This document shows, one piece after another, positions 42,120 to 62,183 of a stretch of 64,000 nucleotides of DNA; position 1 is the first letter of the stretch, and every line of letters starts with the position of its first letter. The stretch comes from Nemertoderma westbladi. Its lineage: Eukaryota; Animalia; Xenacoelomorpha. The position numbers and the translations under genes are program-made. The stretch is from positions 26,099-90,098 of the forward strand of contig JAUCBJ010007234.1 of NCBI GenBank assembly GCA_032718475.1, read 5' to 3'. The notes beneath the pieces are model-generated. The model was not told where the DNA came from and did no database searches. It was given only the letters and a program-made list of their open reading frames with translations.

Positions 42120-42142
42120 CTTAAAAGATGTAAGTACAATAT

Positions 42143-42682
42143 TGTTAGCTTATTCAATCCCGCCAACACCCCATAAAGTTATAAGCCGATAAGCAATATT
42201 GGGAGCCACGAGATTGGGCAATTAACCAACTCGTGCCATCCCAATAAGAGTGGGAAGGAAGCACACAACAAGGGTCAGGGGCCAAACCCGTAACCCAGAG
42301 GAAATAGGTGGAGTGAACGGGAACACTTCAGAGGGCGCCAACAAGGGTATTAACCAATCAGAGGGGGGAAAGGCATCGATTGAGTAGCAATAAGGCCACC
42401 GTGCAATATAACCAATAACCTATTAATCAGTGATTCAGTTATCTCAGTGCAGCAGTGCTAGCGTAGGTTGGTAGTCAATTAGTTTAGTTAGGGGATCACG
42501 GGACTTTAGTTACCGTATCCCACCTTGTACACATTATATCTATATCTATATCCTATGCCCTATTATTATTATACACCGAACTTCAGAACTCAGTTACTTT
42601 CTTTCATCCTTATACACGGCGGGGACGCGTGGACTAAATTACCACACCGGATAAATCGGGATCCCTCCTGGATCCCGTCACA
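42143..42682 (+). repeat. 5' LTR of BEL element B
   Basis: Direct repeat of 55805-56345. CCAAT (~42355), TATA-like (~42405) and TCAGT initiator-like (~42435) motifs. Confidence 0.95.
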
Positions 42683-42763
42683 GTAACTAAATCCGAGGAA
42701 GAAGCCCCAGTTGAACATCAAGAACTGCAGCCTAGCTAGCCGAACCATCAGCCACCAGTTGAG

Positions 42764-45127
42764 ATGAGTGAATCGGGCGAGACACCGACGCGGACCCCGG
42801 ACGAAGATCAAACGATCCGCGAGGCCGCGACCAAGCGATACAGGCCCACGACGCCGGAGCCATCGATAACGGGCGAACCGGAAGTCCAGAACGAGGAGGG
42901 TCTGGAACCCGAAGTCGAGCCAAAGGAAAGGGAGAGCGAGCCGGAGGGAGAAGGAGATGAGTCGACACGGAATGGAGAACGGCGCGCCGATGTCGCCGGC
43001 CAGCTACCGGCCGAGGGCGACGAGCGACCCACCGAAACGGCGACGGTGGGGCCGACGGTGCGACGCCGGACGCGAAGAGACGGAGGAGAGATCGGTACTG
43101 ATGTCGCCGGCCAGCTACAGGCCGAGGGCGACGGATGGCCCACCGGAATGGCGACGGTGGAGCCGCCGGTACGACGTCGAACCTGGAGGGACGGAGGAGA
43201 GGTCGGCGACGAGGACGTCGGGGTCTCCGATCGACTTCGACGGGCTTACATCGCGACCCGGAGACTACTAGAGAAGGCCAGGAAAGGGAAAACGGTAGAC
43301 GAGGTGAGACTGAGAAAGCGACTAGGTGAGTTGGATAGACACTTTAATTATCTAATACGTTTTGGGCAGAGAGAACTAGCCGAAACGAGAGCACGTGAGG
43401 TTGCCGGGGAACTGTTTGAACTATGGGAATGTGGGAGTATGGAACCTAGCGTAGCGTCAGTGTACATAGGGCCATACTTGGTCGATGCCCGGGGAGTAAA
43501 ACCAGTGGGTTGGAGGGGACTCGAAGGGGGCGAATCCGAGGTTAACCCCGAGGATTCGGCCTCGTCGGTCGGAGAAAGCTCCGGGAAGCGGGGGAAAGTT
43601 AGTAGGTCGGGAAGGCGGGGGAAGTCCGTCGTAACCGATAAGTCTGTTACATCCTCCGCGAAAGAAAGAGCGGTGAGAGAAATAGGTGCCGCATACCGTC
43701 TCAGCATGGCAGAGCAAGGTCAGAGAGAAATGGAGAAACGGCTAGAGGAGGGGAGAGTGCGGTTAGAGAGGGAAGCGGCATTGATTAAAGAAACCGGAGA
43801 GAGGGCCGAAAGGGCTTTGAAAAGCCTAAGGGAGTGTGATGAGATAGAGGAAAGGGAGTGTAGGGAGCGTGAGGCGAGAGAGGAAAGGGAACGCAAGGAG
43901 CGTGAGGCAAGGGAGGAAAGGGAACGCAAGGAGCGTGGAAGGGAACGCAAGGAATATGAGGCGAGAGAGGAAAGGGAACGCAAGGAGCGTGAGGCGGAAC
44001 GTAAGGAGTATGAAGCGAGAAGGGAAAAGGAACGCAAGGAGCGCGAAGTGAGACGAAGGGAGAGCATTAAGAGTGCAGCAGAGTCGGCCATCAGGGACAC
44101 CCAGGAGTGTGAGAGGAGACTGGCAGAGGCTGAAAAGGAGCACAAGGAATTAGAGAGACGGCAGAGTGAGTTTGCGGGAAATAGGATTAGACGGGAGCAC
44201 GAGTTGGAATTCGTACGAGCGACGCCGTCTGAAAGCGGGGCCGGCTCGAGTATTTTTGAGGAGCCGGAGGCCGTAGATACATTTATTAATACCCCACTGA
44301 CAGGTACCGCACGACAGACCCAAAACTGGTGCGACCGTACGGGCGGGGGGGGGGGGGGGGGTAATAATAATAATGGTACAGTAGACGTTGTTAATATTGA
44401 TAATACCGTATGGGACAACACTAATCAAACCTTTATTACAGGAAATACTTTGCCTAGTGGTAGTAATTTAAATTTAAATCAGAACAATCCCAATATTAAT
44501 GTAGGAAATAATTCTAATATTGATGTAGTTACGCAAAATAATTCAAATAATCAAAATAATAACCCAAGTTCGAACCTACAAAATAATTTAAATAACGCAG
44601 TTACGCAAAATAATTCGAATAATTTAAATAATGACCTATGCCCGAATTTACAAAATAATTCAGATAACGTAGTCGCGCAGAATAATACAAATGATTTTGT
44701 TTCAAACGAGCAAATTAATTCCGTTTCCAATATGGGTGCTATTAATGTAAACACGTCGGGCCTACATAACCAGGCGGAAGAGGGCCTGGTAGGTCACATA
44801 GTCGGTAGCCAGACGGATGAGGGCCTGGTAGGCCACGTAGATAGTAGACAGGGAGCAGAGGGCCTGGTAGGCCACGTAGTTGGTAGGCAGGGAGTAGAGG
44901 GCCTGGAAGGCCACGTAATAGCAGGGGGAGAGGCGGGGGTGAATAGACCCGACCGCAGTAGGGTTGATGTGTCGACTAGAGAGGTATATAATAGCGGGGA
45001 GAGAGGTAGCGAAGTTAGATGTAGCGAGTGGGGGGGGGGGGGGCTACGAGGACCCCATAACAGAGAGTTAGCGGCGAGAGGGGGGGGGGGGGGGGGCAGG
45101 GAGTGTCCCACAGCCGTCAGCGGATAA
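42764..45127 (+). CDS. BEL B ORF1: N-terminal Gag extension (Glu/Arg coiled coil, Asn-rich and GLVGHV repeats); probably continuous with ORF2
   Basis: 787-aa ORF starting ~80 nt after the LTR. The ORF2 frame is open from the poly-G at ~45080-45096. Confidence 0.8.
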   Translation: MSESGETPTRTPDEDQTIREAATKRYRPTTPEPSITGEPEVQNEEGLEPEVEPKERESEPEGEGDESTRNGERRADVAGQLPAEGDERPTETATVGPTVRRRTRRDGGEIGTDVAGQLQAEGDGWPTGMATVEPPVRRRTWRDGGEVGDEDVGVSDRLRRAYIATRRLLEKARKGKTVDEVRLRKRLGELDRHFNYLIRFGQRELAETRAREVAGELFELWECGSMEPSVASVYIGPYLVDARGVKPVGWRGLEGGESEVNPEDSASSVGESSGKRGKVSRSGRRGKSVVTDKSVTSSAKERAVREIGAAYRLSMAEQGQREMEKRLEEGRVRLEREAALIKETGERAERALKSLRECDEIEERECREREAREERERKEREAREERERKERGRERKEYEAREERERKEREAERKEYEARREKERKEREVRRRESIKSAAESAIRDTQECERRLAEAEKEHKELERRQSEFAGNRIRREHELEFVRATPSESGAGSSIFEEPEAVDTFINTPLTGTARQTQNWCDRTGGGGGGGNNNNGTVDVVNIDNTVWDNTNQTFITGNTLPSGSNLNLNQNNPNINVGNNSNIDVVTQNNSNNQNNNPSSNLQNNLNNAVTQNNSNNLNNDLCPNLQNNSDNVVAQNNTNDFVSNEQINSVSNMGAINVNTSGLHNQAEEGLVGHIVGSQTDEGLVGHVDSRQGAEGLVGHVVGRQGVEGLEGHVIAGGEAGVNRPDRSRVDVSTREVYNSGERGSEVRCSEWGGGGLRGPHNRELAARGGGGGGRECPTAVSG

Positions 45128-45203
45128 TGCAAGGGCCGAAATAGGTAAACCGCAACAACCGGCGACGGAAAGTAACAGGGGGATTGCGGGTATCCCCAGC
45201 GGC

Positions 45204-48200
45204 GTGCGACCGAGCAGAGAGAGACAGGTTGACGTCGCGAGAGGGCGGACGAAGCGTCGAGCCCGATCAGAGGAGGGAAGAAAAACAGTGGGGTTTAACC
45301 GGGAGGTCGATGAGAGATCTCACGAGCGGGAATATTCCACTGATAGGAGAAGAAAGGAAGACAGTAGTAGAAGTATCGCCGCGAACGATAGAAGAGCGAG
45401 GACGGATAGCGAGCCGTCGGTAGTCGAGATGAGAACGGAGAGTCAGTGGGGTCGGACTCCGGGAGATTGCCGTCGCCCCGGAGAGATGCGATCCGGTGAG
45501 ATGCATTACACGCCGAGAGAGGGGTACACGATGTACCGGTACGAAGATGAGGACAGAAGAGAGGGGGGTCGAAGAGAAACTTTCCGACGGAATATACCTG
45601 CCGATCGAGAATACGGTAGCCGCGGGGAGGATTATTCGAGAAGAATAAACTTCGATCCCGAGAGACACATGCAGACTGTAGGACATACTGTAGGCCTTAC
45701 TGCACATACCATAGGCCATATTGAGAGAGGCTATGTAAGCGATAGGATAGCGCGGACGACGGAATTAAGCCCGGAAGTCGCGGAATACATACCGGCGAGT
45801 AGGCCAGAAGCTGATAGGCCTATACCGGTACCAGCACAGCAGTATGACTACAGCATGCAGGGACATAACATATACCCAGGGGAGGGGGGAATTATTGCGG
45901 ATAGGTGCATGGGCCCCAACATATTAACATCAACCCCATTACCAAACATACCGGTGGGGGGGGGGGGACAGGGTGACATTCCCCCATCACAATATCAACA
46001 ATATACCCCGATGGTAGCAAGAACAACGAGACCCTTGGACGAAAACAGGTCGTGTGACACAGATATATGGAGGGGGCCGCTACCCCCGATGACGTACCCA
46101 AGCCAGAGAAAATCAAGAAATAGGACAGACGGAACGCACCAGGCAGGGGAAACTATACAGCACCCGTCGAATCCATTGGAAGCGCAGGCGATAGGGATGG
46201 CCACGTTGATCGATGCTTTGAAAACGAGGATCGAGTTACCACCCGTGGAACCATTCAAGTTCGATGGGAGTAGGCCGGAAGAATATTTGCAGTTTCGGCG
46301 AATGTATAGTAACGAAATACTAACAAAAAACTTGATGCAGGCGGAGTGCCTAAAGTATCTACAAGTGTACACGGGAGGCCCAGCATACGACATCGTGAGG
46401 CAATATCAGGGAATAGAGGGCGGCTTCACGACAGCATGGCGGGCACTGGATAGGGAATACGGGCACCCGGCCAAGATCATCAGGCAGACGCTGAGAGGCA
46501 TAACATCGGGTGGCCTACAGGATAACCCCGTTAGCATTAAGACGTTTGCAAACAAAGTCGAGAAAGCGCTGATCGTGCTGAAGACGCTAGACGCGCCATA
46601 CGAGCTCAACGCGTCCAATAACATCACCACGATAGCGCAGGCACTACCGAACTGGTTGCGCAACAAGTGGAGGAAGATCGCTTTCTCCACTCGAGACAAG
46701 AAGGGTGCGGAACCGGGTTTAGAAGAAATGTCAAACTTCTTAAATTACGAGGCTGAACTAATAACGGACCCAGTCTATAGTGAAGATAGCCTGGGAAAGG
46801 GACCAAAGACGGATCACTACAGGCCGAAACCAGAGCACAATACATCAAACGCATTGCCGAGGCTCAGGCAATCATTGCCATACACAGCGACGCAGGGGAC
46901 TGCAAGTCCACAGGCAAACGAAGATAAGACAACATCATGGAACGGACAGGGGAACAATAACAACATGAATAAACATAACCCCAGTACGTCCAGTAGGCCA
47001 AATCCAGTCAATAAGAATAGTAGGGACTTTGGTACGAATATAACTGCGATACGCAATGCATTGTATAAAGAGGGCTACGACCCAAAGAGCAAATGCCAGT
47101 TACACGCAAATGCGCTTCATAAAACCATGAACTGCAGGTACTGGCAGGCGCTACCGAGGCAAGACCAGATAGATTACGCGTCGAGCAATAAATTCTGCTC
47201 GCGATGTGTGAAGAGTGGACACAAGGCCAGGGAATGCCAAGAGAAGCCGGTCAAGTTTGGCCAAAGGAGAGGCCAAACGATGGCAACGAGCACGGTAGGG
47301 GCGAAGAAGAGAGGCACGGTGTTACTTGGAGTAGTACCGGTGCGAGTGATCGGGGAGGGCAATCGATCAGTAACAACACTAATGCTGGTTGATAGTGGAG
47401 CTGCCTTCACATTAGTCGAGGAATGGGTAGCCGAAGAAATAGGATTGAGAACAAGGCCAAGCAGAATGGCGGTAACAACCATCTCTAGCAAAGATGAGAT
47501 CCTAGAGATGAGGACAGGACGGTGCGCAATTGCAGCAGTGGCACCAGGATGCGATTATGGGGCAACCATCGACCCCATCCAAGTAATAGAGTCAATTAAC
47601 ATCAATGCCAGGCGGCCAACCAACATCGAGGTCGAGCAATACAAATTCCTGGACGACATTGACTTCTCGATCCCAGACGTGGACGTTAGGAAGGTATCCA
47701 TCATAGTAGGAATGGACTGCCCGACGGCCCACGAAAGAATGCAAACGGTCTTCGGCGAAGACAAGCAGAGTGACCCGGTGGCCATATTAACACCATTCGG
47801 GTGGACGCTGAGTGGTCCAATTAAGAGCAAGATACCATTCAGGATGTCGGAGACATCAGGATGCATGTTCGCGGGAACAATGCAGGAAATGGGTGATGAG
47901 GGAGCAGAGGAGCAGCTTAAAAGACTGCTCAGACAAGACTTTGAGGGACTGAAAGAGACCGGGGTCGGGACCTCGGTAGAAGACAAGCAGGCTCTACAAA
48001 GCGTGGAGGAATCGATGACGTGTGATGAGGGGCGGTATACAATAGGAATGGTATGGAAACTACCGAAGATACCGCTACCCGATAATAGAGGGATGGTAAT
48101 CACGAGACTCCGCAAGCTGAAACAAACACTAAAACGGAGCCCCGAGAAGAACGAGTACATTCACAAAACGATTAAGAAGTACGTCGAGAAAGGATGGGCC

Positions 48201-51200
48201 GTGGAGTTACCGGTCGACGAGCCGAACACGGACAGGACATACTACCTGCCACTCCACGTAGCTTTAGACCCAAAGAAAGGTAAACTTAGGATGGTAGTCG
48301 ATGCATCGGCAAAGACCGACGGAAAGTGCTTAAACGACTACCTACTAGAGGGCCCAAACATATACAATTCGGGCATAGAAGTACTACTTAGATTTAGGAA
48401 TGGGAAACACGCCTTCACGTGTGACATAGAAGGCATGTTCAACCAAGTCCGTGTAACAGAGGAAGATAGCGACAGTCAACGCTTCTTATGGTATAACGGC
48501 GAGGAAGAACCGCCTATAGTACCGGCATATAAGATGGTAGTACAAAACATGGGGGCCAAGTCGTCCTCATTTACGACGACTATGGCAGTGAGAGACACGG
48601 TGAAGGGGAAGGAAGATAGATACAGCAGTAGGGCCGTCGATATGATCCGACGCGGCTTCTACGTAGACGACGGTATGGAGTCTGGAAATACGGTTGAGGA
48701 GATACTGGAAACAGGGCGCGAGGTTCGCGACATCCTGAAAGGATCCGGCTTCAACCTGACCAAATTCCAATCCAGTTCAGAAGAATTTATCAAGGCAATA
48801 GAGGACAAGAAACCAGAATCGACCATGGACAACCCTACAACAGCCAAAGGACAGGACATGGCGAATAAGAGAACACAATCTCAGCAAAAGGCATTGGGAA
48901 TCGTGTGGGATAGAGGAACAGACGAACTGAAGTATCAGCTGAGCCAGGAGGGCGCAGACACCCATACGAAGAGGGGTTATGTATCGTATATAGCAAGGAT
49001 ATACGATCCCCTAGGCCTAGCATCCCCATTACTAGTCACGGGGAAACAGATACTCAAGAGAGTATTTAAATTGAAGGATGAGTGGGACGTAGAGGTACCA
49101 GAGGACATCAAGAAACAGTGGAGCAAATGGACAGGAGACTTGGAGAGGATGGGAACATACAACATGCCGCGAGCGTATTTCCCGGACGGGAACATGACGA
49201 ATCTGGACCTACATATGTTCTCCGACGCGTCGTTAGAGGCATACGGGGCGGCACTCTATTTAGTACAACGAGAGGGGCCTCACAAGCCCAGACTAGCCTT
49301 TAGCAAAGCTAAGTCAACGCCGCCAGATTCAGCATCTGTTCCCAAGTTAGAATTGACAGCTGCGAGACTAGGAGTTAGAGCCACAGCCTACCTAGTGGAT
49401 ACAATTCCCAACATAGTGGAGACACACTACTGGACGGACTCCATGGTAGTGCTTGGTTGGCTACACAACGAAAAGACGAGGTACCCGATATTCGTCGCGA
49501 ATAGAGTGGACGAAATAAGGGCGAGCACAGAACTGGAAAGGTGGCACTACTGCCCAACAGACGAGAACCCAGCGGACCTGCTGTCGAGGGGCGTGGAACG
49601 CCACACTTTCTTAAAGAAGGAAGTATTGTGGCAGCATGGGCCACAATTTCTGAGCGATAGAGAGGCCTGGCCGCCGATGAGGAAGGTGGACCCGGGCTCG
49701 GAACCAATATCAGAAGGAGAGGGAGATTCAGAGGGAGAAGAGATATACTCCCAGATGGTGAGGGAGATTAGGGACGTGCAACCAGGAAGGGAACTGTGCG
49801 ACAACCCGACGGATAAACTCCTCAGCTACAGTTCCAGTTGGTATAAGACCAAGAAACTAGTGGCGTACTGGAGAGCCTTTGGGAATTTCCTTGCGGGAGT
49901 CGGCAAGGACAAGAAGACCAGGATAACCATAGATCTGGAAGGAGCGGCCAAGGCAGTGATCCGCTATGAACAACGCAAGAACTACGGCGACGAGGTGGAA
50001 CGTGTCGGTAACCAACAGCACCTCCGACGGGATAGCGAGTTGATCACGCTGTCGCCACAACTCAACGAGGACGGGATTCTAGTAATGAATTCTAGGGTGG
50101 GATATAACAACAGTATAGTCGTGCCACCGAAACCCATCATCATTCCCACAGGATCGCCTATAGTCCACCAGATCATATGGGACTCCCACAAATCGATACT
50201 GCATGGGGGCACCAACCGAACCCTCACAGAGATAAGGAGGACCTATTGGGTCAAACAACTAAGGAAGAAGGTTAAAGCGGTAGTGGGGCAGTGCCAGACC
50301 TGCCGACGAGCGAAGAAGGAACGAGCCGTACAGGAGATGGCGCCACTACCGGCGAGTAGGGTAAGACAGCACGACCCGCCATTTACGCATTGCGGTGTGG
50401 ACATGTTCGGGCCGATAAAGATCAAGGTGATGCGACACACGGAGAAACGCTATGGTATTATCTCCGTATGCAACAATACGCGGGCGGTAGGGATAGAACT
50501 CGCCCAAGATGCAACCGCATCAGCATTCATTAACGCCCTAGAAAGGTTTAGGGACCGCAAAGGTGGGACGATCGCAGTGATATACAGCGACAACGGCACC
50601 AACTTTGTGGGCGCAGAGAGTGAGATGACAGAGGCCTTAGACATCTTGGAGGGAGAAGAAGTCAGGGCGGCCATGAGAAGACGACAAGTGAAGTGGGAGA
50701 GAAGGACGCCGTATGCACCACATACATTAGGATGCGTCGAGAGACTCGTGGGCAGTTCAAAACGTCTAATGACGAAGCTAATGAACACCAACATGGTCAC
50801 TGAGGACGTTTTACGGACAGTACTTGCGAAGTGCGAGGGGATCATTAATAGCAGACCGCTATATCCGGAGAATGATGACCCTGAGTCGTTAGACGTGCTG
50901 ACGCCTAGCCATTTCCTGATGGAAAGGCCAGCGACCATCGATATGCGGGGTGTAGACCCAGATGACATACACTCCCGCCAAAGTTGGAAAGTCGCTAAAG
51001 CAATAAGCGCAGAGTATTGGAGGAGGTGGGTCGAGGAATACCTACCCACGCTCCATAAGCGAAGCAAGTGGAGGAAGCCGAACAGGGAGTTAAGAGAGGG
51101 AGATCTCGTAATCGTTACGGATGATACTATCATCAACAACCAGTGGCGGTTGGCGAGAGTTGTACGCACTTACTCCGATGAGGACGGAAGAGTCCGATCG

Positions 51201-51296
51201 GTAGAAGTGCGAATAGGTGGGAAGATAGGTGCGAAGGACAGAAAAACCTACAGGAGAGCGGTAGGCAAATGCTGTCTCCTAGAAGGGGCACCTTAG
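45204..51296 (+). CDS. BEL/Pao Gag-Pol polyprotein (Gag, knuckles, protease, RT, RNase H, integrase)
   Basis: KFDGSRPEEY; CSRCVKSGHKAREC; LVDSGAAFTL; YYLPLH..KLRMVVDAS; DIEGMF; FYVDD; LHMFSDAS; HYWTDS; CPTDENPADLLSRG; H-H-CQTC; VDMFGP; YSDNGTNF; GCVERL; LTPSHFL; YWRRWVEEYL. Confidence 0.96.
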   Translation: MRPSRERQVDVARGRTKRRARSEEGRKTVGFNREVDERSHEREYSTDRRRKEDSSRSIAANDRRARTDSEPSVVEMRTESQWGRTPGDCRRPGEMRSGEMHYTPREGYTMYRYEDEDRREGGRRETFRRNIPADREYGSRGEDYSRRINFDPERHMQTVGHTVGLTAHTIGHIERGYVSDRIARTTELSPEVAEYIPASRPEADRPIPVPAQQYDYSMQGHNIYPGEGGIIADRCMGPNILTSTPLPNIPVGGGGQGDIPPSQYQQYTPMVARTTRPLDENRSCDTDIWRGPLPPMTYPSQRKSRNRTDGTHQAGETIQHPSNPLEAQAIGMATLIDALKTRIELPPVEPFKFDGSRPEEYLQFRRMYSNEILTKNLMQAECLKYLQVYTGGPAYDIVRQYQGIEGGFTTAWRALDREYGHPAKIIRQTLRGITSGGLQDNPVSIKTFANKVEKALIVLKTLDAPYELNASNNITTIAQALPNWLRNKWRKIAFSTRDKKGAEPGLEEMSNFLNYEAELITDPVYSEDSLGKGPKTDHYRPKPEHNTSNALPRLRQSLPYTATQGTASPQANEDKTTSWNGQGNNNNMNKHNPSTSSRPNPVNKNSRDFGTNITAIRNALYKEGYDPKSKCQLHANALHKTMNCRYWQALPRQDQIDYASSNKFCSRCVKSGHKARECQEKPVKFGQRRGQTMATSTVGAKKRGTVLLGVVPVRVIGEGNRSVTTLMLVDSGAAFTLVEEWVAEEIGLRTRPSRMAVTTISSKDEILEMRTGRCAIAAVAPGCDYGATIDPIQVIESININARRPTNIEVEQYKFLDDIDFSIPDVDVRKVSIIVGMDCPTAHERMQTVFGEDKQSDPVAILTPFGWTLSGPIKSKIPFRMSETSGCMFAGTMQEMGDEGAEEQLKRLLRQDFEGLKETGVGTSVEDKQALQSVEESMTCDEGRYTIGMVWKLPKIPLPDNRGMVITRLRKLKQTLKRSPEKNEYIHKTIKKYVEKGWAVELPVDEPNTDRTYYLPLHVALDPKKGKLRMVVDASAKTDGKCLNDYLLEGPNIYNSGIEVLLRFRNGKHAFTCDIEGMFNQVRVTEEDSDSQRFLWYNGEEEPPIVPAYKMVVQNMGAKSSSFTTTMAVRDTVKGKEDRYSSRAVDMIRRGFYVDDGMESGNTVEEILETGREVRDILKGSGFNLTKFQSSSEEFIKAIEDKKPESTMDNPTTAKGQDMANKRTQSQQKALGIVWDRGTDELKYQLSQEGADTHTKRGYVSYIARIYDPLGLASPLLVTGKQILKRVFKLKDEWDVEVPEDIKKQWSKWTGDLERMGTYNMPRAYFPDGNMTNLDLHMFSDASLEAYGAALYLVQREGPHKPRLAFSKAKSTPPDSASVPKLELTAARLGVRATAYLVDTIPNIVETHYWTDSMVVLGWLHNEKTRYPIFVANRVDEIRASTELERWHYCPTDENPADLLSRGVERHTFLKKEVLWQHGPQFLSDREAWPPMRKVDPGSEPISEGEGDSEGEEIYSQMVREIRDVQPGRELCDNPTDKLLSYSSSWYKTKKLVAYWRAFGNFLAGVGKDKKTRITIDLEGAAKAVIRYEQRKNYGDEVERVGNQQHLRRDSELITLSPQLNEDGILVMNSRVGYNNSIVVPPKPIIIPTGSPIVHQIIWDSHKSILHGGTNRTLTEIRRTYWVKQLRKKVKAVVGQCQTCRRAKKERAVQEMAPLPASRVRQHDPPFTHCGVDMFGPIKIKVMRHTEKRYGIISVCNNTRAVGIELAQDATASAFINALERFRDRKGGTIAVIYSDNGTNFVGAESEMTEALDILEGEEVRAAMRRRQVKWERRTPYAPHTLGCVERLVGSSKRLMTKLMNTNMVTEDVLRTVLAKCEGIINSRPLYPENDDPESLDVLTPSHFLMERPATIDMRGVDPDDIHSRQSWKVAKAISAEYWRRWVEEYLPTLHKRSKWRKPNRELREGDLVIVTDDTIINNQWRLARVVRTYSDEDGRVRSVEVRIGGKIGAKDRKTYRRAVGKCCLLEGAP

Positions 51297-51404: not shown

Positions 51405-52055
51405 AGTTAGTTAGTTAGTAGGTACGTAGTGCCTAGAGTTAGTTAGTTAGTAGGTACGTAGTACCTAGAGTTAGTTAGTTAGTTAGTAGGTACGTAGTGC
51501 CTAGAGTTAGAGAGTTAGTAGGTACGTAGTACCTAGAGTTAGTTAGTTAGTAGGTACGTAGTGCCTAGAGTTAGAGAGTTAGTAGGTACGTAGTACCTAG
51601 AGTTAGTTAGTTAGTAGGTACGTAGTGCCTAGAGTTAGAGAGTTAGTAGGTACGTAGTACCTAGAGTTAGTTAGTTAGTAGGTACATAGTGCCTAGAGGG
51701 TTAGTAGGTACGTAGTACCTAGAGTTAGTTAGTTAGTAGGTACGTAGTACCTAGAGTTAGAGAGTTAGTAGGTACGTAGTACCTAGAGTTAGTTAGTTAG
51801 TAGGTACGTAGTACCTAGAGTTAGAGAGTTAGTAGGTACGTAGTACCTAGAGTTAGAGGGTACGTAGTACCGCTAGTTAGAGTTAGAGTTAGAGGGTACG
51901 TAGTACCACCAGTTAGAGTTAGAGTTAGAGGGTATGTGGTACCGCTAGTTAGAGTTAGAGTTAGAGGGTACGTAGTACCGCTAGTTAGAGTTAGAGTTAG
52001 AGGGTACGTAGTACCGTTAGTTAGAGTTAGAGGGTACGTAGTACCATTAGTTAGA
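51405..52055. repeat. Minisatellite between pol and ORF3 (agttagtaggtacgtagtacctag variants)
   Basis: Seen directly; units of ~30-39 bp. Confidence 0.95.
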
Positions 52056-52539
52056 AGAGAGAGAGTAAGAGGTAAAAGGGGTAAATAGGATATAGATATT
52101 AGTTAGCAGTAAGTAGAGTTAGTAGCGAGAGGGGGGCATATGAGTACAGCTGGGTAAATCGTGTGGCCACACGACGTATACTGCTGTACTGCATAGGCCC
52201 ACAAAGTAGGCCAGAATATGGATTAGAGAATAGAATAATCCATAGGCAGTAATAGGTAGTAGGACAGTAGAATTAAAATAAATAGAATAGGGCTGAAAGT
52301 TAGAAATAGTGGCAACACAAGGGAAGTCGTTCTAGAACATAATAAAAGTAACGGACAGAAATTGTAAATTAGGCTCATTTACTAGCTTCAAAATTAATTA
52401 GGTTAAATTTAGGCTAAAAGGCGCAATTAAGTAGAAAGTAGGCCATTATCGAACCGTACGAAACATCTTAATACATCACTCATCTGTATTGCGCCTTGGT
52501 AAGGCACCACCCTGCAGGTGAGCGAGTGTAGTGTTCGGA

Positions 52540-55089
52540 ATGGCGAGTAAGTTGATCAGGAAGAGGAAGGCGGAGTCAGGAGGAAAAGAAATACTGGTGG
52601 ATTTCACCGAAAGACACCTGGAAGAGAAGACGAGAGGATACTACGAGAAGTTGGAAAGGGGTCACGCGGCACGAGCGCTGCAGGACCACTTCCGGGAGAT
52701 GCACGAGCAGCGGCTGGTCGGGACCTACGGAACGCCGTCGCTGGACAACGCGATCTTCCAACACTTCCACTACGTGGTGAAAGGGGACGAGGCGAAGTTC
52801 GGGATTCCGAAGTATCCGAGGGAATCACCGAGGAAGGACTGGAAGAGGTTCATAGAGTCCGTCAACAGGGGAGGATATATGATCCTAGATGACGAGGGAA
52901 CCGTGGAAGACGAGGCGGGTTCGAGACGAGGATCAGCGGGGTCGGCCAGGACCATACTCCTACATTTGGCCGCGCCAAATGGGGATATCTTCCTATTCGA
53001 TTTAGGGACGTATGGGAAGAAGGACGGGCCGAAACTGAGCCGGTTACCGAAAGCGGTACAAGTCTTGGTAAGAGAGAAGTCGACGACGAAAGTGGGATCG
53101 GCGATTCGCGAGGATGCGGAAAGGATCATCGGTCCGGACGCCACCAACCTCCTGGATATGCAGAAGGTCTTTATGGCTATGACGGCACCGGATGGGTTGG
53201 GGCTAGTCGAAAACACAGGTCTATGCGGGGCAGTGGCAATGGGCCAACTATTGGGGCTCGTATGTCACAAACCGATGGACTGGGGGAAGTTTAGGGAAGA
53301 ATACGGAGCAGAACTAGCGAACTCGCTAAAGTGGGGAGCGAGACCGGGAAAGCAGGAGGCATATCAATTTCGCAGAGGAGCGATAAAGGTATATCAGAAG
53401 CGATATATCTTGCAGGAAGACTGGATTATGATAAGTTTGCTTAACTTATTTATGACCGTAGTCATCGAGAGGGAACCAGGAGCATTTCTGTTATCGGGAT
53501 CACCCCTAAGCTACAGGAGAGCCTTTAAAGTGGCCTTTGACGGTCTGGTAGACCACCCGGGGCTGAAGGGCGAGTCGGTGTACTACAACAGCCGACATCT
53601 GGTAGACGGGGAGACAGATACACCGTATCAGAGATGGGAGCAGCTAGAGGCGGACAGACGAGAAGCAAAGCGACTGGAAGAAGTCGCTAGACGGGAGAGG
53701 ATAGAAGCAGAGGAGAGGATAGAGGAGGCCAGGGCACAGAGTTACGGCTTCGAGGAACAGGCGGGCCTAGACGAACTTCATTGGACTTCGTCAGGGAGTT
53801 CGGGGGAGTCTCTAGGGCGAGAATTGGGATGGATGGTGGGATCGCCGAAACAGTCGACGTCGGGGTTGCAAACGATGCCCATACCAGCGGGCGCCGAGGG
53901 CGACCAACTGCCAAGGAAGCTAATGGAGCTAGAGGGATGGAGAGCTACGGGCGAGAGCCAAGGCGGGAAGGGACATAGTGGATCCATCGGGATACCGGGA
54001 TTAGAGACACTACCAGAAGAGGAGGACGACGACGACGAGTTCGGAGAGATGCCGCCCATCGAGAGGATAGGCCACTCGGACACGGACTGGGTTGGCGGAA
54101 GGGTGGTGACGGCCAGTGGGGCGAGGGCCTTCTGGAACAGATCCGGCAAGCGGACCTGGGTGCACGAGGAGCCGGCGGTGGATTTCGCGGGGAGCACCAT
54201 CAGGTTGGGCGAGCAACCGGGGACGGCACCACGGATAGTATTCGGGGAGACGATGCCCGAGAGGGGCGGAGAGATCGGCGTAAACAGGGAGACCAACGTA
54301 GAGAAGTTCGCCTACCAGCGACTCCACAGACCGCGGAGATCGCTTGGGACGAAAGACGAGGTGGGACGGGAGACATTGGTACTCGGCTGCGACTACTGTG
54401 GGAGACGGACCCATCGGGAGGGCAGCTGCCTATACCGGTTCCAAAAGGGAACCTTTTGTCTCTACTGCAGAGAACCAAGTCACAGGATGGGGGCGTGTCC
54501 ACGGTTGCATAACCGATGTCCAAAGTGCCACTTTCGGGGACACTACGGGCGCGAGTGCGACTGGATGAGCGACGAGGAGAAGTTCACAAGATTCGAGGAG
54601 TGGGCCGACGTCGGGGCCATGACGCGCCAGTGCATGAAGGCCCAAGAGTTCAAGTGGGGTTTCTTCCTTATAAACCAGGAGACCCACATGGAAATCATAA
54701 AGCGAAGGTTACCGTTTACCTATCAAGAGGTAGCAACGGCGGCGTCGTACGCTGGAGTGATGAACACGCAAAGGTATCTGGACAGGTGGACGCCAGAGAA
54801 CCGAAGGGAGTTTAGGGATTTCTTGGCGGAGCACGTACCAAAGGCAATGAAAATTATCCTATGGGACGCCACTAGAGGGAGACAACCGGGCCATTCTGAG
54901 GGGCCACCGGCGAAGCGATATCGGGCACTAATAATACCAGCGCCCAAGGAGCCAACGACCGGGATTAGCAAGGAAGTGGCGGCGAAGGTCCGAAAGCAGA
55001 AAGCGGATGATGCCAGAGGAACGGTGATAACCAAGAAACGGCCCAGGGAAGAGGATGCCAGGGGGAACTACCCCCGGAGGAACAGATAG
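52540..55089 (+). CDS. BEL B accessory ORF3: DEDDy (WRN/EXD2/RNase D-like) 3'-5' exonuclease domain plus three CCHC zinc knuckles
   Basis: ExoI MILDDEG; LLHLAAPNGDIFLFDL; ExoII LVREKSTTKVGSAIREDAERI; NLLDM; ExoIII-like YQKRYILQED; knuckles CDYCGRRTHREGSC, CLYCREPSHRMGAC, CPKCHFRGHYGREC. ~850 aa, intact, inside the LTRs. Confidence 0.75.
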   Translation: MASKLIRKRKAESGGKEILVDFTERHLEEKTRGYYEKLERGHAARALQDHFREMHEQRLVGTYGTPSLDNAIFQHFHYVVKGDEAKFGIPKYPRESPRKDWKRFIESVNRGGYMILDDEGTVEDEAGSRRGSAGSARTILLHLAAPNGDIFLFDLGTYGKKDGPKLSRLPKAVQVLVREKSTTKVGSAIREDAERIIGPDATNLLDMQKVFMAMTAPDGLGLVENTGLCGAVAMGQLLGLVCHKPMDWGKFREEYGAELANSLKWGARPGKQEAYQFRRGAIKVYQKRYILQEDWIMISLLNLFMTVVIEREPGAFLLSGSPLSYRRAFKVAFDGLVDHPGLKGESVYYNSRHLVDGETDTPYQRWEQLEADRREAKRLEEVARRERIEAEERIEEARAQSYGFEEQAGLDELHWTSSGSSGESLGRELGWMVGSPKQSTSGLQTMPIPAGAEGDQLPRKLMELEGWRATGESQGGKGHSGSIGIPGLETLPEEEDDDDEFGEMPPIERIGHSDTDWVGGRVVTASGARAFWNRSGKRTWVHEEPAVDFAGSTIRLGEQPGTAPRIVFGETMPERGGEIGVNRETNVEKFAYQRLHRPRRSLGTKDEVGRETLVLGCDYCGRRTHREGSCLYRFQKGTFCLYCREPSHRMGACPRLHNRCPKCHFRGHYGRECDWMSDEEKFTRFEEWADVGAMTRQCMKAQEFKWGFFLINQETHMEIIKRRLPFTYQEVATAASYAGVMNTQRYLDRWTPENRREFRDFLAEHVPKAMKIILWDATRGRQPGHSEGPPAKRYRALIIPAPKEPTTGISKEVAAKVRKQKADDARGTVITKKRPREEDARGNYPRRNR

Positions 55090-55804
55090 GTTCCCAGAGT
55101 CGAGGGAGAGAGACTGGGACTTAGACGTGGTACGCCTGGCAGGCGCCGCGCGGGATGTACGAACTATTAAGTACAAATTCAATTAATGCAAATAATCATA
55201 TAAGTGCAATTTGTATGTACGTACGTAGTAATTAGTAATCTAGTAAAATACATACGTTTGGAGTAAGTACTATAGTCATACAACCTTTCTCAATTAGCTA
55301 CTGGGACTGGGGGATAACTGACTATGGCACTATGGACGAGACAACTGACAATTTCACGCTTCTTGAGTGCGACGGCACGAGAGGGGGGGGGAGGTTCGTC
55401 AGGAGAGATAAAAATAGTCAAAGTGGAGTTGAGGATCGGAGTAAGAGTGCGAAGTGCCAAGAGAGTGCGAACGCAATTCTAGTGTGGGGGGGGGAGAATA
55501 AGAGGCTGAGTGAGGGACGAGGAGGTCCGGGGGTATGAGAGAGTTAGGGTGAGAGTGGAGGGGAGATAGGGCGAAAGTGTTGGGGAAACAAAAGTCGCGT
55601 GAAGAGGTGAGCGCGATCGGCCCGACATGAGACGCCAGGTACACAGGGTAGCGTTATCATACCCATAAGGGGCGGTCTGGAAAGCCGGCTCCTAGAGAAA
55701 AGAATTCCACCCCACACCCGATACTAGATCGGGATCCAGCGGGATTGTAACGCACTTTTTTGGTTGATGCTATCTTCTTACCGGGAAGATAGCATGGGGG
55801 GGAG

Positions 55805-56345
55805 TGTTAGCTTATTCAATCCCGCCAACACCCCATAAAGTTATAAGCCGATAAGCAATATTGGGAGCCACGAGATTGGGTGATAACCAATTCGTGCCAT
55901 CCCAATGAGAATGGGAAGGAGAACCACACCACAAGGGTCAGGGGCCAAACCCCTAACCCAGAGGAAATAGGTGGAGTGAACGGGAACACTTCAGAGGGCG
56001 CCAACAAGGGTATTAGCCAATCAGAGGGGGGAAAGGCATCGATTGAGTAGCAATAAGGCCACCGTGCAATATAACCAATAACCTATTAATCAGTGATTCA
56101 GTTATCTCAGTGCAGCAGTGCTAGCGTAGGTTGGTAGTCAATTAGTTTAGTTAGGGGATCACGGGACTTTAGTTACCGTATCCCGCCTTGTACACATTAT
56201 ATCTATATCTATATCCTATGCCCTATTATTATTATACACCGAACTTCAGAACTCAGTTACTTTCTTTCATCCTTATACACGGCGGGGACGCGTGGACTAA
56301 ATTACCACACCGGATAAATCGGGATCCCTCCTGGATCCCGTCACA
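55805..56345 (+). repeat. 3' LTR of BEL element B
   Basis: Follows the PPT; ends gtcaca. Confidence 0.95.
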
Positions 56346-57728
56346 ACCGCCTTGCTTGTTATCAAGGGGTTCGAGTCAAGTTGAGAAGCTACCATCTGAA
56401 AAAAGAACTCACATTAGCTTTAGCAATTTAGACAGAACATTACCAGCATTGTTTGTAATATATTTTGACATAGAATCTATTTTGGAGCCAGTCTGCAACA
56501 GTAAATTTAGTCAGAAGCATATTCCGTGCGCCGTAAGTTATTTAGTTGTCCCTAGTAGTGAATTAATCTATCCACCAAAATTTTATTTGCAAAATGATGG
56601 TTGATGACAGATGATGACGGATGATAATAACTGTATTCAAGACTTTTCAGACTCTCTACATAATGATATTATCCAATTATATAAGTGGTCAGAAGCTCAT
56701 AGACATGAAAAAATGATACTAAATGATCTAGATGAGTTAAGTTTTGGGAAGACTAAAACTTGTTTTTATTGCGATGTTTCATTTAAGGATAAGTCTGAGA
56801 AAAACAAACATCACTCACATATTACTGGTAACTATATAGCAGCCACTTGTAACGCATGTAACCACTCTTTATCATTGAAACGTCACATGTATATACTCGC
56901 CGCACATAACTACAATCACTACACTACGATTTGCATTTTCTTTTGCAAGTTGGGTTTTGTAATAACAAATATTCCGATTGGGATATAAAGGTAATCCCTA
57001 AAAATACAGAGAGGTGTATTTCACTGAGTATTCATATACCGGTGAAAGACCAAAAAACGAAAATCGAGTTATGTGTCTTAGACATATATCAATTTTTAAC
57101 CTTTTCTTTAAGTAACTTAGTTGATTGTTCAACAAAAGATATAGACAATGAGGATATAACATCAGTTCTACCAATTACTGTACAGCAAATTAAATATTTT
57201 TATCCGAATTTAAATAATGCAACAATTAAACAAAAAGGTATATTTCCCTACGAGTACCTGACAGATTTAAATAAATTAAACAATTCGAAATTACCATCGA
57301 TAGACAAATTTTTTAGTAACTTAACACAAAGTACCTGTACACCCGAGGATTATAGTTTTGCTAACACATCATGGAGTCAATTTGACTGCTCGAATCTTAA
57401 GGATTATCTTTTAGCATACTTAAAACTCGATGTTTGTCTCCTCGCTGATATATTTGAGAACTTTAGGAGAGTATGTAGACAAAACTATGAATTAGAAGTA
57501 GTTTACTATTGCAGTATCGCAGCATTCACTTATGATTGCGCCCTGAAATATAATAGATGTAAACTAAAATTAATAAAAGATTACCAAGCTTACAGAGATT
57601 TTGAAGCATCCATTAGAGGTGGGGTTTCATTCTGTCGAAAGCATTACATAGAATCAAATATACCAGATAGTGATATTTATGATCCGAGTAAGGAAGAGTG
57701 TCATATTTTCAATGTAGATATATTGTAA
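56346..57728 (+). pseudogene. Protein-primed DNA polymerase B, fragmented and truncated at both ends
   Basis: VIYFDIESIL; CFYC..HHSHITGNYIAATCNACN; AHN; KQKGIFPYEY; DYLLAYLKLDVCLLADIFENFR; IRGGVS. Confidence 0.9.
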
Positions 57729-57754
57729 TATAGTTGATATATTCCCAATTTGTC

Positions 57755-57847
57755 CATCGATTTTGGAGCTTAAACACCAAGTTGGGTATTTAATATTCTA
57801 ACTTCATCGATTTTGGAGCTTAAACACCAAGTTGGGTATTTAATATA
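57755..57847. repeat. Direct repeat (~42 bp, 51-bp period) at the junction of convergent Polinton genes
   Basis: catcgattttggagcttaaacaccaagttgggtatttaatat occurs twice. Confidence 0.85.
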
Positions 57848-57906
57848 TTTTATTTATAATAAATTTAAAAAATTATTTATAAAAATATTATAATTTAATA
57901 ATATAC

Positions 57907-58227
57907 TTAATAATTTACTTTCATCAACCCGAATACATAATATATATTATATTTATTTTTTAAATGCTTCTTCATGTTCTTTATGAAATCATCTGGCGAA
58001 ATATCACCGTAATTCCATGGTAAATGTGATGTCATATCGCGTAAATTGTTTATATAGGCTATACCTAATGCCGATAAGTTAATATCTGGCGGTGCTTTAA
58101 TTAAAAATGTCTTTATATTAGTTTTACTGTATTTAGAATCAAATATAGCAAATTCTTTAAATACTATCGGATATTCCTTATTGTCTATCCTATAATATTG
58201 AAAAGCAACAAAAATAACATTATACAT
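57907..58227 (-). CDS. Polinton small accessory protein (KEFA..LPWNYG..YVFG motif family), function unknown
   Basis: Motif pattern typical of Polinton-associated small ORFs; recognised by pattern only. Confidence 0.45.
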   Translation of the reverse strand: MYNVIFVAFQYYRIDNKEYPIVFKEFAIFDSKYSKTNIKTFLIKAPPDINLSALGIAYINNLRDMTSHLPWNYGDISPDDFIKNMKKHLKNKYNIYYVFGLMKVNY

Positions 58228-58289
58228 TTTATCAAATAATAATAATGATGTTTTTAAATAAACAAAAGTTAAATGTTTAATTACAACGC

Positions 58290-58870
58290 TTATTGGTTTA
58301 TTTTATAATAATTAACCAGCCATTTATATAATATTATTTCATTTATTTCCACATTTCCACTTTCAGTATCAAAATCAATCGTCAATCCGCTTACAAATTG
58401 CATTTGTTTACTAAAAGCGTCGGCAATAGGGTGCGCACCAGGATTAATTTCATTTCTGTGTTCGGTTAAAGGCTGTTGAAAGCCTACTGCCCCCAGCAGT
58501 CCATTTTTACTTTCATATGTAGTAAAAAGTAAATTGGATAAGTACAACTTGTAGAAAGAATGGTTATTGCTATTCTCAACCTGCTTCTCATTGAGGTCTA
58601 TTTTAATATCACTCCACATAGTTCCTGAGGGGTAATTCAACATATGAATGTGGGAGTTTTCCAACCATCTATCCCAGCGTACAGTACATTTTGTAATTAT
58701 AACGCATCTTGCAGTTTCGTATAAAATTCATTCGAGCGTGGTATTAAAAAAGTTACTTCACGCGACTCACTTCTGAGACTAGATACTGGGTAAATTGTTT
58801 AATAATGCTTTGCTTTAAATTCAGTTTGTATTGGCTGCGTAGAAAATAAATCTAATTCTCTAATAATCGA
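58290..58870 (-). pseudogene. Polinton major capsid protein (double jelly-roll), N-terminal part, degraded
   Basis: LELDLFSTQPIQT..IYP..VTFLIP..SNEFY; MWSDIKIDLNEKQVENSNNHSFYKLYLSNLL..ESKNGLL. Confidence 0.75.
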
Positions 58871-58937
58871 TATTATTAAAAAATACTTTTTTCGCAGTGG
58901 TTGAGTTTACCTTTTTTTTTATTTTTCTATTTTTACC

Positions 58938-59437
58938 TCAATGAGGTATGTTCATAGACATTGGTTTAGCTGGTCGCTTTAAATCTCTATAAACTTTTTC
59001 TACAACCGATCTTGTTGATGGTTTCATTTTATTTAATGCTTTATTAATAACCGTATTAGCCTGCTGATGTAAGACCCACTTACCTTTTGGTATTACGTGT
59101 TGTCTCATAAATTTTGTGGTAAATGGTAAAGCTTTTTGTATAACCTTTTTTGCTAATGGCTTTCCAAACTTCTTTAATATAGATAAAGCATCTGTAAGTA
59201 TTCCTTCCCTGTGTTGATTTGATGCATACCTCTCCGATAACGCTGAAATCGTCATTATTTTGAGTTTGGACCAAATGTACCATTTTATTGCCCGTAAAGG
59301 TCTATATATGAACCCCTTCGAAACACAGGAACTTGCGTTGACCCTCTCGTTGTTCTACCACCTTTAAAAATGGCAAGATTAGAGTCTGCACCTCCATATT
59401 GCGGTTTACTGTATCTTTGAAATAAATCGGAATCCAT
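58938..59437 (-). pseudogene. Putative Polinton core (virion) protein
   Basis: QYGG..IFKGGR and QHREGIL..basic amphipathic segments resembling protease-site-bearing core proteins; lies between the capsid genes. Confidence 0.5.
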
Positions 59438-59461
59438 TTAAATAATAATAATAAAGACTAA

Positions 59462-60303
59462 TTTATTTTCCTAAAGTGTAAAGTAATCAAAGTCCCGTAA
59501 TCAAAATTTAAATCTTTTCCTTCTTTGTCTGTTATTTAAATATGAATGTAAGTTATCCTATATGATTTTTTTACTGGGATATAATGAAAAGTATCCTTAG
59601 CAAATTCTTGATTTATTACCATGCCTTATTTCACATCATTAGGTATCGCCACACAACGAAGTAAAGCTAAACCAAAATCATTAATATATTCATTTTCAAT
59701 TATATTAGTAGTCACGTACATGTTTGACTTAGGTTCTGGAATAGAATTGGGTGGTTGAGGACATAAAAATACCATTTGGTAAGTTTTTTCTTCATTTCCG
59801 ATAATTGTTATTAAATAACCCTTTATATTATTTTTCGTCTTCAAAATAATTTTAAAATTTGGATTTAAATCCCCTCCGAGATTATTTTCTGTAATTACAA
59901 AATAATAGGCTAATTGTTGTCATATAAATAATTCACGTACAGTTTTCCATAAAATAAATTGCAATCTATTTTGCTGAGTATTTTCAACTATTTGTAATTT
60001 ATCTTTCAACGCGCCTGTGTTAAAATAATCTATAATTTCATTAATACTGTAGAATCAACCGGATAATGGTAGTGTATCCTCAAAGTTTTTTTTCCATTTT
60101 TTTATTAAAATAACATTCTCTATATTGTTATACATGGATGGTAACGTGGCTAAATAAAAAATACTTTTTATACCAACCACCCAGTTTTCGTTTGGATTTA
60201 TAGGTAAGGCGTCATGTAAATTGATTTGATAATTACTATTAGTATTACACGGAAAATCAGTTGGGCAAGAATTACTCGGTAGTCTAACATAGAATTCATC
60301 CAT
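59462..60303 (-). pseudogene. Polinton minor capsid (penton) protein, fragmented
   Basis: FYVRLPSNS..FPCNTNSNYQINL..WVVGIKSIFY; MYVTTNIIE..LLRCV; HYIPV..ITDKEG..ITLHFRK. Confidence 0.8.
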
Positions 60304-61109
60304 CGCTGCGGATTAACTTAAGTGTTACAACAGTGCGACCACTGTTGAAATTAATTAATTATCTTCGACCGTCACGTAAAGTAATTAAGATCATTTTTAG
60401 TTTTTTATTCAACAATGGATAATCACGTTCATGGTCATGTTCATTGCTTCTACAGTATATGCGAGGGATCAATATTTTACTAGCTTCATTTAAAGCGAAT
60501 GAACTATAGATATTAGACTTACTTACAGTATAGTAATATCATTCAAGTTAATTTAATGTAATTTAATTGATATTCGTACATATGAATAAACAATAGACAT
60601 AGTACACGGTACATAGACATATTATTAGTAAAGTAGCACAATATTAATGACGTAGGCCTATGTAATGAATAACTGACAGAACATGCAGTAAATAACACGG
60701 CATCGAACAAAATAATTATAGGCAATAATATAAAGAATATTTAACTAACATGTAGTAATATAATTAAGGATATCAGTAATCTCATCAACATTAAAACCAG
60801 GTATATCAATATTGCTACAACAACAATTAATTAATTACCTACACAATTCTAATTTCCATCTATCAGCTACATCAAAAGGAACGTAGTTCAACTTATTAAC
60901 GTGCATAACATTGATCGAGTTAATGAGAGGTATTTTACACAGATTTGCAATAGAACGTAAATTGCACCCACTTCGCGAACGACAATCATATAAAAATTGA
61001 TGATCATTGATATTGATTAATTATGCATTTAATCTGCGTATTAATTAATATATATGACCATTATTCACTCAATTAATAAATATACAGTATAAGCCTAAAC
61101 TTATTTAAT

Positions 61110-62183
61110 ATGCTGTATCCAGGATTGCTTCTTGGACCCAATAAATGTAACCAAATATTCTCTTTTCCCTTTACAAACACGTTCTTTAAGTTTACCCATA
61201 TTTTCAATCGGATGATAAATATTACTACTTGCATGGACCTTTTGGAGTTCGTATGATTAAAATGAACCATTTATTATAGCTCCAGCGCTGTCCTTATTAT
61301 CAAACATGACTGCCGGCACTCTATCCAATCTGACCCAATGAATAAGAAATAATTCACGAGTCCAATGTTCTCGATAGCCTTTAGCAAAAGCAGTACGAGC
61401 AATAGATAATAGTACTGTATCACCTACTTTAAATTTTATTTTCTTGTGATTAATCTGTCTATATTTCCCATATAATCTATTAATTAATTCAGTTTCATTA
61501 AATTTATTAACTCTGGGCTTCATTTGTATAGTTCTATGAAATGACCTATTATAAGCGAAAATAAGCTTTGGTAAAATTTTTACCCAAACATTTTTCCCGC
61601 GTTGCGTGAAAATTTTGAACATTTTTGTCTTTAATGTTCTATTAAATCTTTCGACTATAGCCGCCTTATTCACAGAGTACATTACGTAATACCATACACC
61701 GATAGTATCTAAATATTTCCTCACAGGTTTATTTAGAAATTCAGATCCTTGATCAGTTGCGATTCTGTTTGGTTTGCCTTTCTGGAATATTTTTTGCAAT
61801 ATACTAATAATTTCAATACCTGTTTTTGTTTTCATACCGTAGGTGAAAGCAAGCCGGCTAAAGGCATCAATACATATTAATATATAGTTATAATTATTAT
61901 TTTGTGATTTATATTGCTGCATATCTACCAGATCTATCATATATATATCTTTTAACCCTCCCGTAAATATTTTAGATGTTGGATAATGATGTCTACGTGG
62001 TGCGTGAAGGGTATATGTCTTTTGTCCGCTTAACCATTTCTGGGCTTGAGATGGTTTGATGTTTGCCACTTTTGCCAATTTTGTGATACTTGCAAAGCCC
62101 GCAGGTGATGAAGGATCTGAATAAATTCTTAACAGTTTTTTGTCTAAACTCCTGTTTAAAATCGGTCTCATCTTGCGTGGCAT
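61110..62183 (-). CDS. Polinton retroviral-type integrase; chromodomain-like tail frameshifted
   Basis: IYSDPSSPAGF; IDLVDM; CIDAFSR; ATDQGSEF; AAIVERFNRTLK; YNRSFHRTIQMKP; FKVGDTV; FAKGYREHWTRELF; downstream REYLVTFIG..SWIQ. Confidence 0.92.

Follow-up and report, generated by a model that had tools for sequence, protein, structure and literature searches.

What does a retrotransposon gain from a third gene that resembles an exonuclease instead of an envelope (env) protein? The question is raised by 64,000 nucleotides of DNA from the xenacoelomorph Nemertoderma westbladi (assembly GCA_032718475.1, contig JAUCBJ010007234.1, positions 26,099 to 90,098, forward strand; this whole stretch is hereafter the window, to whose first letter all coordinates refer), in which a 14.2 kb BEL/Pao-type element bounded by two TG...CA long terminal repeats (LTRs) carries an accessory open reading frame, ORF3, between pol and the polypurine tract (PPT). 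A preliminary description of the window had proposed that ORF3 encodes a DEDDy 3'-5' exonuclease joined to CCHC zinc knuckles. As judged from sequence comparison, ORF3 is an old, conserved accessory gene of BEL elements from which catalysis has often been dropped; the predicted assignment of its N-terminal domain to the DEDDy-type exonuclease fold class can be regarded as settled, and this nuclease domain is under purifying selection among copies.

ORF3 begins with an ATG at 52540 and stops at 55089 on the sense strand, encoding 849 amino acids without an internal stop. The frame of about 850 residues that had been called intact between pol and the PPT is therefore real, with the caveat that the fourth acidic residue of its putative active site is a Glu. 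The motifs recognised at the outset are all present, namely ILDDE at residue 115 (52882), LLHLA at 140, GDIFLFDL at 148, KVGSAIREDA at 184, LLDMQ at 204 and YILQED at 289 (53404), and the three CCHC knuckles said to follow them lie at 54388..54558, beginning at 54388, 54457 and 54517. The helical extension behind the knuckles corresponds to no known family that could be found, and no solved chain matched when the C-terminal module was searched by itself as a profile. A second basic cluster, RKRK at residues 7-10, complements the one close to the C-terminus (Table 1); such clusters occur in 39 of 66 family proteins, against 17.4 expected. The highest hydropathy over 19 residues is only 1.44, on the motif III helix, which argues against a transmembrane (TM) anchor, and the N-terminus is basic; by hydropathy (no dedicated predictor was run) ORF3 thus has neither the signal peptide nor the anchor of an env-like protein, as had been claimed. 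The sequence CTGCAG/G proposed as a splice acceptor ahead of ORF3 does exist at 52512-52518. Splicing of an ORF3 mRNA is nevertheless unsupported, because the site has a poor pyrimidine tract (11 of 20) and a donor-like AG/GTGAG can be read from these very bases.

Taken as a single sequence, ORF3 gave no match in Pfam, DNA_pol_A_exo1 included, one weak knuckle match to PDB sequences in one run and none in another, and nothing in word-indexed protein searches (also when an alignment was used) or in searches of phage sequences (tblastn), related metagenome loci and viral contigs; a single-sequence fold prediction, with a predicted local distance difference test (pLDDT) score of 34.9, was not usable. 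The DNA_pol_A_exo1 score of the best homologue (one of 35) was 23.3 bits against a cut-off of 23.6, and none of 21 locus ORFs matched this family. A profile of 28 family sequences matches EXD2 (E 4.6e-11), WRN (1.7e-4), Egalitarian (3e-4) and Trypanosoma brucei RNase D (TbRND; 1.3e-8, with 8.7e-5 for the knuckle stretch and 0.35 for the nuclease stretch). A nuclease-only profile of 25 sequences matches EXD2 with E 1e-13, including the N-terminal strand-helix preceding motif I; the motif III stretch aligns weakly to EXD2 (0.4 bits). The AlphaFold model built from 54 sequences (mean pLDDT 60.8, predicted TM-score 0.44) reaches pLDDT values of 85-94 at residues 101-120 and 141-210, 82-89 at 281-310 and 84-96 at 621-730, and displays the DnaQ-like alpha/beta fold of DEDDy exonucleases. 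Foldseek returned 33 matches to it at E <= 0.001; the matches listed are DEDD-fold proteins, led by Egalitarian (E 1e-5) and TbRND. In the VIA comparison, Nibbler (Z 13.0, root-mean-square deviation 3.8, 199 residues aligned), WRN (12.3, 3.1, 175), RNase D (12.2, 3.6, 183), TbRND (11.8, 4.0, 203) and Egalitarian (Z 11.6) are close together. Profile and structure searches, which could have overturned the proposed assignment, both returned a DEDDy-type exonuclease fold; since the top matches are tied, this settles the fold class and not the donor.

The active site was compared across 102 collected domains, of which 82 were left at less than 80% identity and 69 had all four motif columns filled. 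Acidic residues are retained in all four columns by 37 of the 69, across very deep splits (DEDD in 28, DEDE in 5, DEED or DEEE in 4), three keep motif I with another change, and 29 have lost motif I, 26 of these being unbroken frames or whole proteins with both domains kept. The nuclease tree, built with FastTree and containing long branches, supports neither a donor nor an order of events. In ORF3 the catalytic columns are occupied by D117, E119, D192, Y289 and E293. The D-x-E of motif I and the Asp of motif II are present, whereas the strict Y-x-x-x-D of motif III is not, Y289 being followed by Glu in place of Asp. The preliminary description had seen atypical ExoIII spacing (YxxxED) here; the spacing is in fact the canonical YxxxE, and what departs from the pattern is the Glu in the Asp column. 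Because E293 occupies that column, ORF3 is filed as a DEDE fold variant and not as a canonical DEDDy enzyme. In four DEDE relatives, 21-27% identical to the ORF3 protein, motifs I and II and the Tyr are likewise preserved.

Copies of ORF3 were represented by many diverged contig pieces from public DNA runs, whose depth is not a copy number and of which the one with the best coverage may be the source sample itself. Among the best-supported 40 of the 63 variant sites in the nuclease domain, 35 are silent, where transitions would be expected to give 34% (p 3e-12), which corresponds to a rough nonsynonymous-to-synonymous ratio of 0.07 for the same best 40 of 63 sites. Variation at codons 192 and 293 is silent; codons 117, 119 and 289 do not appear among the listed variant sites. 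A family profile built without ORF3 scores it at 95.6 bits, while 200 shuffles stay at or below 0.3. The gene occurs, under purifying selection, in other copies and also in distant BEL elements, so that the second possible refutation, a lack of ORF3 in other family members, fails as well.

In an exhaustive search with phmmer, 54 homologues were recovered, each of them matched via the knuckle region. The N-terminal domain alone, scored against 55 proteins, recovered 9 at E < 0.01, which indicates that the nuclease and knuckle domains travel together; neither an informative name nor a named cellular protein of ORF3 architecture was found among 30 homologues looked up. A degenerate knuckle pattern identified at least 120 metagenome loci, 80 with flanks, and 115 of these loci score with the knuckle profile. 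Among the matches listed, the nuclease domain is present in 54 of the 56 knuckle-positive loci having at least 1.5 kb upstream, and a BEL pol lies on the same strand, 0.4-3.4 kb ahead, in 31 of the 39 loci with a further 1.5 kb. Of the eight loci lacking it, one has a decayed integrase (L056) and one is a deletion form flanked by LTRs (L022:5187-10931) that retains a gag fragment and ORF3 and has lost pol; three leave little space because of long N-terminal frames, and in the other three no upstream gene could be recognised. When 23 upstream ORFs, hand-picked from 91, were scanned, 21 showed Pao-specific Pfam families, and the reverse transcriptase (RT)-ribonuclease H (RH) regions of the upstream pols are 26-33% identical to that of the window element. 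Over 23 elements, RT and nuclease distances correlate with rho 0.84, which fits long co-inheritance; a correlation does not prove a single origin, and the RT tree, a quick version with the window element on a long branch, supports neither a donor nor an order of events.

Several variations on this arrangement were observed. Four loci (L005, L015, L043 and L051) have very long ORF3 frames of 1328-1592 residues with N-terminal extensions in which Pfam found no match. At eight loci (L007, L029, L031, L039, L068, L069, L076 and L080) the ORF3 frame follows directly behind a single in-frame stop of the preceding ORF, a junction that makes readthrough possible and that may also be due to chance. Three proteins from a cluster of 30 (P0042, P0083 and P0084) combine the knuckle module with a homeodomain at the C-terminus (PF00046, E 1.8e-5) and a region rich in serine and arginine, show no nuclease domain by eye and are possibly a domesticated derivative. 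The 3' untranslated region (UTR) upstream of the PPT contains a CCCCACGTTGGGCG-like motif in 15 of 57 loci, against 0.5 expected (L002, L027, L033, L034, L038, L039, L040, L060, L062 and L064-L069). The motif complements the TGGCGCCCAAC start of the primer site of the same loci, and we take it to resemble the 3' end of tRNA-Lys(CUU). Wherever the nuclease is visible, these loci fall in a clade with a dead nuclease; the motif is absent from the window element, and no full tRNA was found.

Exonuclease genes in retroelements have precedents. DEDDy ORF3s occur in the bdelloid rotifer LTR elements Juno and Vesta and in Athena/Terminon retroelements (PMC5408684; PMC6431247), in agreement with the Gypsy-like and Penelope-like cases mentioned in the preliminary description (PMC5408684). 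Like the window ORF3, those of Juno, Vesta and Athena are RNase D-like DEDDy genes of putative function, downstream of pol, that replace env, lack a TM domain and show an Asp/Glu exchange at a single motif residue. Here, by contrast, a BEL/Pao element takes the place of the Gypsy-like or Penelope-like carrier, three CCHC knuckles and a conserved extension are added, the family is broad, and purifying selection on the window gene is strong; in the rotifer paper 'CCHC' does not appear and 'knuckle' is used for gag and pol (PMC5408684).

A parallel architecture is that of TbRND (PDB entries 7C42-7C4C), which also has an N-terminal DEDDy domain and C-terminal CCHC knuckles, both matched by one profile, and whose knuckles bind RNA and strongly boost 3' trimming (PMC7797062). 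TbRND is a cellular mitochondrial enzyme with four knuckles, the first of them docked on the nuclease, a 28-residue linker and proven U-tail trimming (PMC7797062), whereas in ORF3 the knuckles number three, the linker spans about 260 residues and includes a long helix, and motif III has a Glu; the resemblance is likely to be convergent. Among EXD2, WRN-exo and Nibbler (Mut-7), EXD2 is the best profile match and Nibbler has the best Z in the wide search, but identities are 11-20%, Z values are tied and none of their solved chains bears an ORF3-type knuckle module. Egalitarian and EXD1 share the predicted fold, and in them catalysis has been lost or is not required, a situation that recurs in 29 of the 69 family members; they differ in being host proteins without knuckles and with known partners (BicD/dynein and the PIWI-interacting RNA, piRNA, pathway). 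The main BEL/Pao survey mentions env as the sole extra gene in the text available (PMC3118150), and no published BEL/Pao exonuclease ORF was found in a literature search whose scope excluded Repbase, subscription journals and supplements, including those of PMC3118150 and PMC5408684. The supposition that neither a BEL/Pao case nor a DEDDy-CCHC fusion had been described thus holds, as far as that search reached, for the former and fails for the latter, the fusion being known in cellular TbRND (PMC7797062). With DEDDy ORF3s known in rotifer elements and the domain pair in TbRND, it is the BEL carrier that appears to be new.

As to function, we tentatively favour, at somewhat less than even probability, a role in which ORF3 binds and trims RNA 3' ends and thereby blunts host RNA surveillance of the element. 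The knuckles would grip single-stranded RNA and the nuclease domain would bind and trim free 3' ends, so that surveillance directed at the element, through small silencing RNAs or host-added tails, would be blunted; lineages without catalysis would bind 3' ends without cutting them. The protein would act in trans from a separate mRNA, as suggested by its own ATG 1.24 kb past the pol stop, and may be nuclear, as the basic clusters hint. RNA is the probable substrate in view of the knuckles and the TbRND precedent. Host surveillance as the target is the least secure part, favoured by analogy with the piRNA-pathway DEDDy proteins named in the rotifer ORF3 paper (PMC5408684) and with the restriction of LINE-1 by host 3' uridylation (PMC6191937). 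A more specific proposal, in which an RNA 3'-end nuclease encoded by a wide and ancient set of BEL/Pao elements would suppress the small-RNA silencing of the host, its knuckles catching piRNA, small interfering RNA or tailed RNA and its DEDDy domain destroying it or, in dead lineages, sequestering it, is unlikely as it stands; if true, animal transposons would possess an enzymatic counter-defence encoded by the elements themselves, at which the Gypsy-like and Penelope-like ones would have arrived on their own.

A number of observations weigh against RNA trimming as the role of ORF3. The tied fold matches include DNA-acting enzymes, so that the preference for RNA rests on the knuckles, which some 260 residues separate from the nuclease domain, as opposed to the 28-residue linker of TbRND. 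The site is putatively catalytic with Glu at the fourth acidic position, and the activity, substrate, expression and localisation of the protein are all putative. Loss of motif I in 29 of 69 members needs seven changes on the FastTree, five of them forced by strong branches, and cutting therefore appears dispensable in many lineages. Egalitarian keeps all five catalytic residues, none of which is needed for RNA binding or function (bioRxiv 2025.08.03.668247), and an intact motif is for this reason no proof of a nuclease role. Only 5 of 14 listed variant sites outside the nuclease domain are silent, half of the 14 being positions where the window copy differs from every compared contig. Finally, the uridylation precedent concerns a non-LTR element.

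The main rival reading is a protein that binds the genomic RNA of its own element and routes its export, transport or packaging, in the manner of Egalitarian, EXD1 or the Cer1 CERV protein, the nuclease site being incidental. This reading is doubtful and yet comes close, given the frequent loss of catalysis and the example of Egalitarian, which has retained a motif that it does not need. Egalitarian is also the top Foldseek match (E 1e-5) and binds I-factor RNA with catalysis unnecessary (bioRxiv 2025.08.03.668247), the Cer1 export factor is made from a spliced mRNA (PMC10309623), the 29 members without motif I keep both domains, basic clusters are enriched (39 of 66 against 17.4) and the 3' UTR motif of the dead-nuclease clade (15 of 57 loci, 0.5 expected) is a candidate binding site. 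A pure adaptor, however, would find four acidic columns superfluous, and 37 of 69 members keep them; nor was a conserved RNA target found in the window element. That ORF3 is instead packaged via its knuckles, which resemble nucleocapsid fingers, and trims the 3' ends of primer, RNA template or cDNA, or proofreads, is improbable. DNA-acting DEDDy enzymes among the tied matches and a primer site that lacks the TGG start and has a 9-nt complement in the LTR (p 0.002, post hoc) speak for it, but ORF3 is not part of the Pol frame, the gene is also found in relatives whose primer sites are of the ordinary TGG kind, the primer site-LTR duplex energy (p 0.12) is not significant, as in 13 of 14 relatives, and a second BEL element in the window shows no ORF3 match; the repeated loss of catalysis, with its dead relatives, argues against obligatory cDNA processing.

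Two further explanations fare worse. A captured host gene or nested insert without a role for the element would agree with a function that is predicted only and with the rotifer ORF3s, which show no clear departure from neutrality (PMC5408684); it is contradicted by the silent-site bias among copies, the constant place behind pol (31 of 39 loci among the matches listed), the RT-nuclease distance correlation (rho 0.84, 23 elements) and the fact that none of the 30 homologues looked up is a named cellular protein with such an architecture, and is very unlikely and largely refuted. An env substitute that aids cell exit or entry is scarcely credible, having in its favour its position in the element and nothing else: ORF3 has no hydrophobic anchor (maximum 1.44; 9 of 66 relatives reach 1.8), and nuclease and knuckle folds are of intracellular types.

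Exonuclease ORF3s in print are a rotifer oddity without clear selection; here they belong to a different superfamily, are old and widespread and evolve under purifying selection. Pfam misses the family, and the knuckle-plus-extension module has no family model. Catalytic (DEDD), variant (DEDE) and dead forms that share a predicted RNA-binding module occur naturally in the family, which with soluble domains makes it testable whether an animal LTR retrotransposon factor acts on host RNA silencing or on its own RNA traffic.

The element itself is assigned to BEL/Pao by its pol (Table 1), with the Pao-specific order protease-RT-RH-integrase and Pfam scores above cut-off (PF05380, 138.5 bits; PF18701, 84.9; PF03564, 41.0; PF17921, 46.9). 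The pol stop at 51296 is followed by the spacer, ORF3, the 3' UTR, the PPT and the 3' LTR.

Table 1. Features of the BEL/Pao-type element and of ORF3 (window coordinates)
Feature	Position	Strand	Remarks
5' LTR	42143..42682	+	540 nt, TG...CA
Primer-binding-site position	42683..42693	+	begins GTAAC, not TGG
ORF1, N-terminal part of gag region	42740..45127	+	795 aa stop to stop, low complexity
gag-pol frame	45072..51296	+	2074 aa: DUF1759, knuckle, protease, RT, Pao RNase H region, integrase, DUF5641
Tandem repeats of 24-36 nt, within the spacer (1.24 kb) from pol to ORF3	51405..52055	+	
ORF3, accessory protein	52540..55089	+	849 aa
DEDDy-fold 3'-5' exonuclease domain (predicted)	52741..53595	+	aa about 68-352
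Motif I, D117 and E119	52888..52896	+	columns align with EXD2 motif I; invariant in family alignment
Motif II, D192	53113..53115	+	codon shows silent variation only, among listed sites
Motif III, Y289-x-x-x-E293, Glu in Asp column	53404..53418	+	E293 codon shows silent variation only, among listed sites
Long E/R-rich helix, aa 362-408	53623..53763	+	pLDDT 91-96 over 371-400
Predicted disordered linker with acidic patch, aa 411-611	53770..54372	+	pLDDT < 50
Three CCHC-type zinc knuckles, aa 617-673	54388..54558	+	pLDDT 84-96
Helical extension behind knuckles, aa 678-735	54571..54744	+	conserved columns F685, A689, G692, T695, W706, G707
Basic KRPR cluster, possible nuclear localisation signal	55036..55047	+	
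Polypurine tract	55796..55804	+	
3' LTR	55805..56345	+	541 nt, TG...CA

The ICTV profile of the Belpaoviridae lists an env-like gene alone as third gene, genomes of 4.2-10 kb and a tRNA-Arg/Gly primer site (PMC8742986). The window element agrees with this profile in having one more gene besides gag and pol within its LTRs, and departs from it in its 14.2 kb, its nuclease ORF3 and its non-TGG, not tRNA-type primer site (PMC8742986); the size and the GTAAC start make it atypical, although BEL/Pao-type by pol. The GTAAC start also adjoins the LTR in other copies among contigs of public DNA runs, and no tRNA gene was found in the window or in 31 related loci. A 9-nt exact complement of the primer site lies inside the LTR (42505-42513; shuffle p 0.002, post hoc), the duplex energy is not significant (p 0.12), and pairing with the upstream 3' UTR and LTR is significant in one of 14 relatives; self-priming was not adopted.

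The LTR pair differs at 13 sites, 11 of them clustered within LTR positions 77-148 (about 70 nt), and the element flanks (42138-42142 and 56346-56350) contain no target-site duplication; both features may stem from two copies having recombined or from a join made during assembly. ORF1 gave no match in a Pfam scan, and its overlap with the gag-pol frame (45072-45127) sits at a long G homopolymer run, compatible alike with a programmed shift, a copy defect or an assembly error. Elsewhere in the window, the second BEL-like element, which is broken and has near-identical LTRs, occupies 25891-37020 on the minus strand and contains no match to the ORF3 family, and a fragmented Polinton-like region with pieces of a family B polymerase and an integrase, recognised by eye, extends over 56346-62213.

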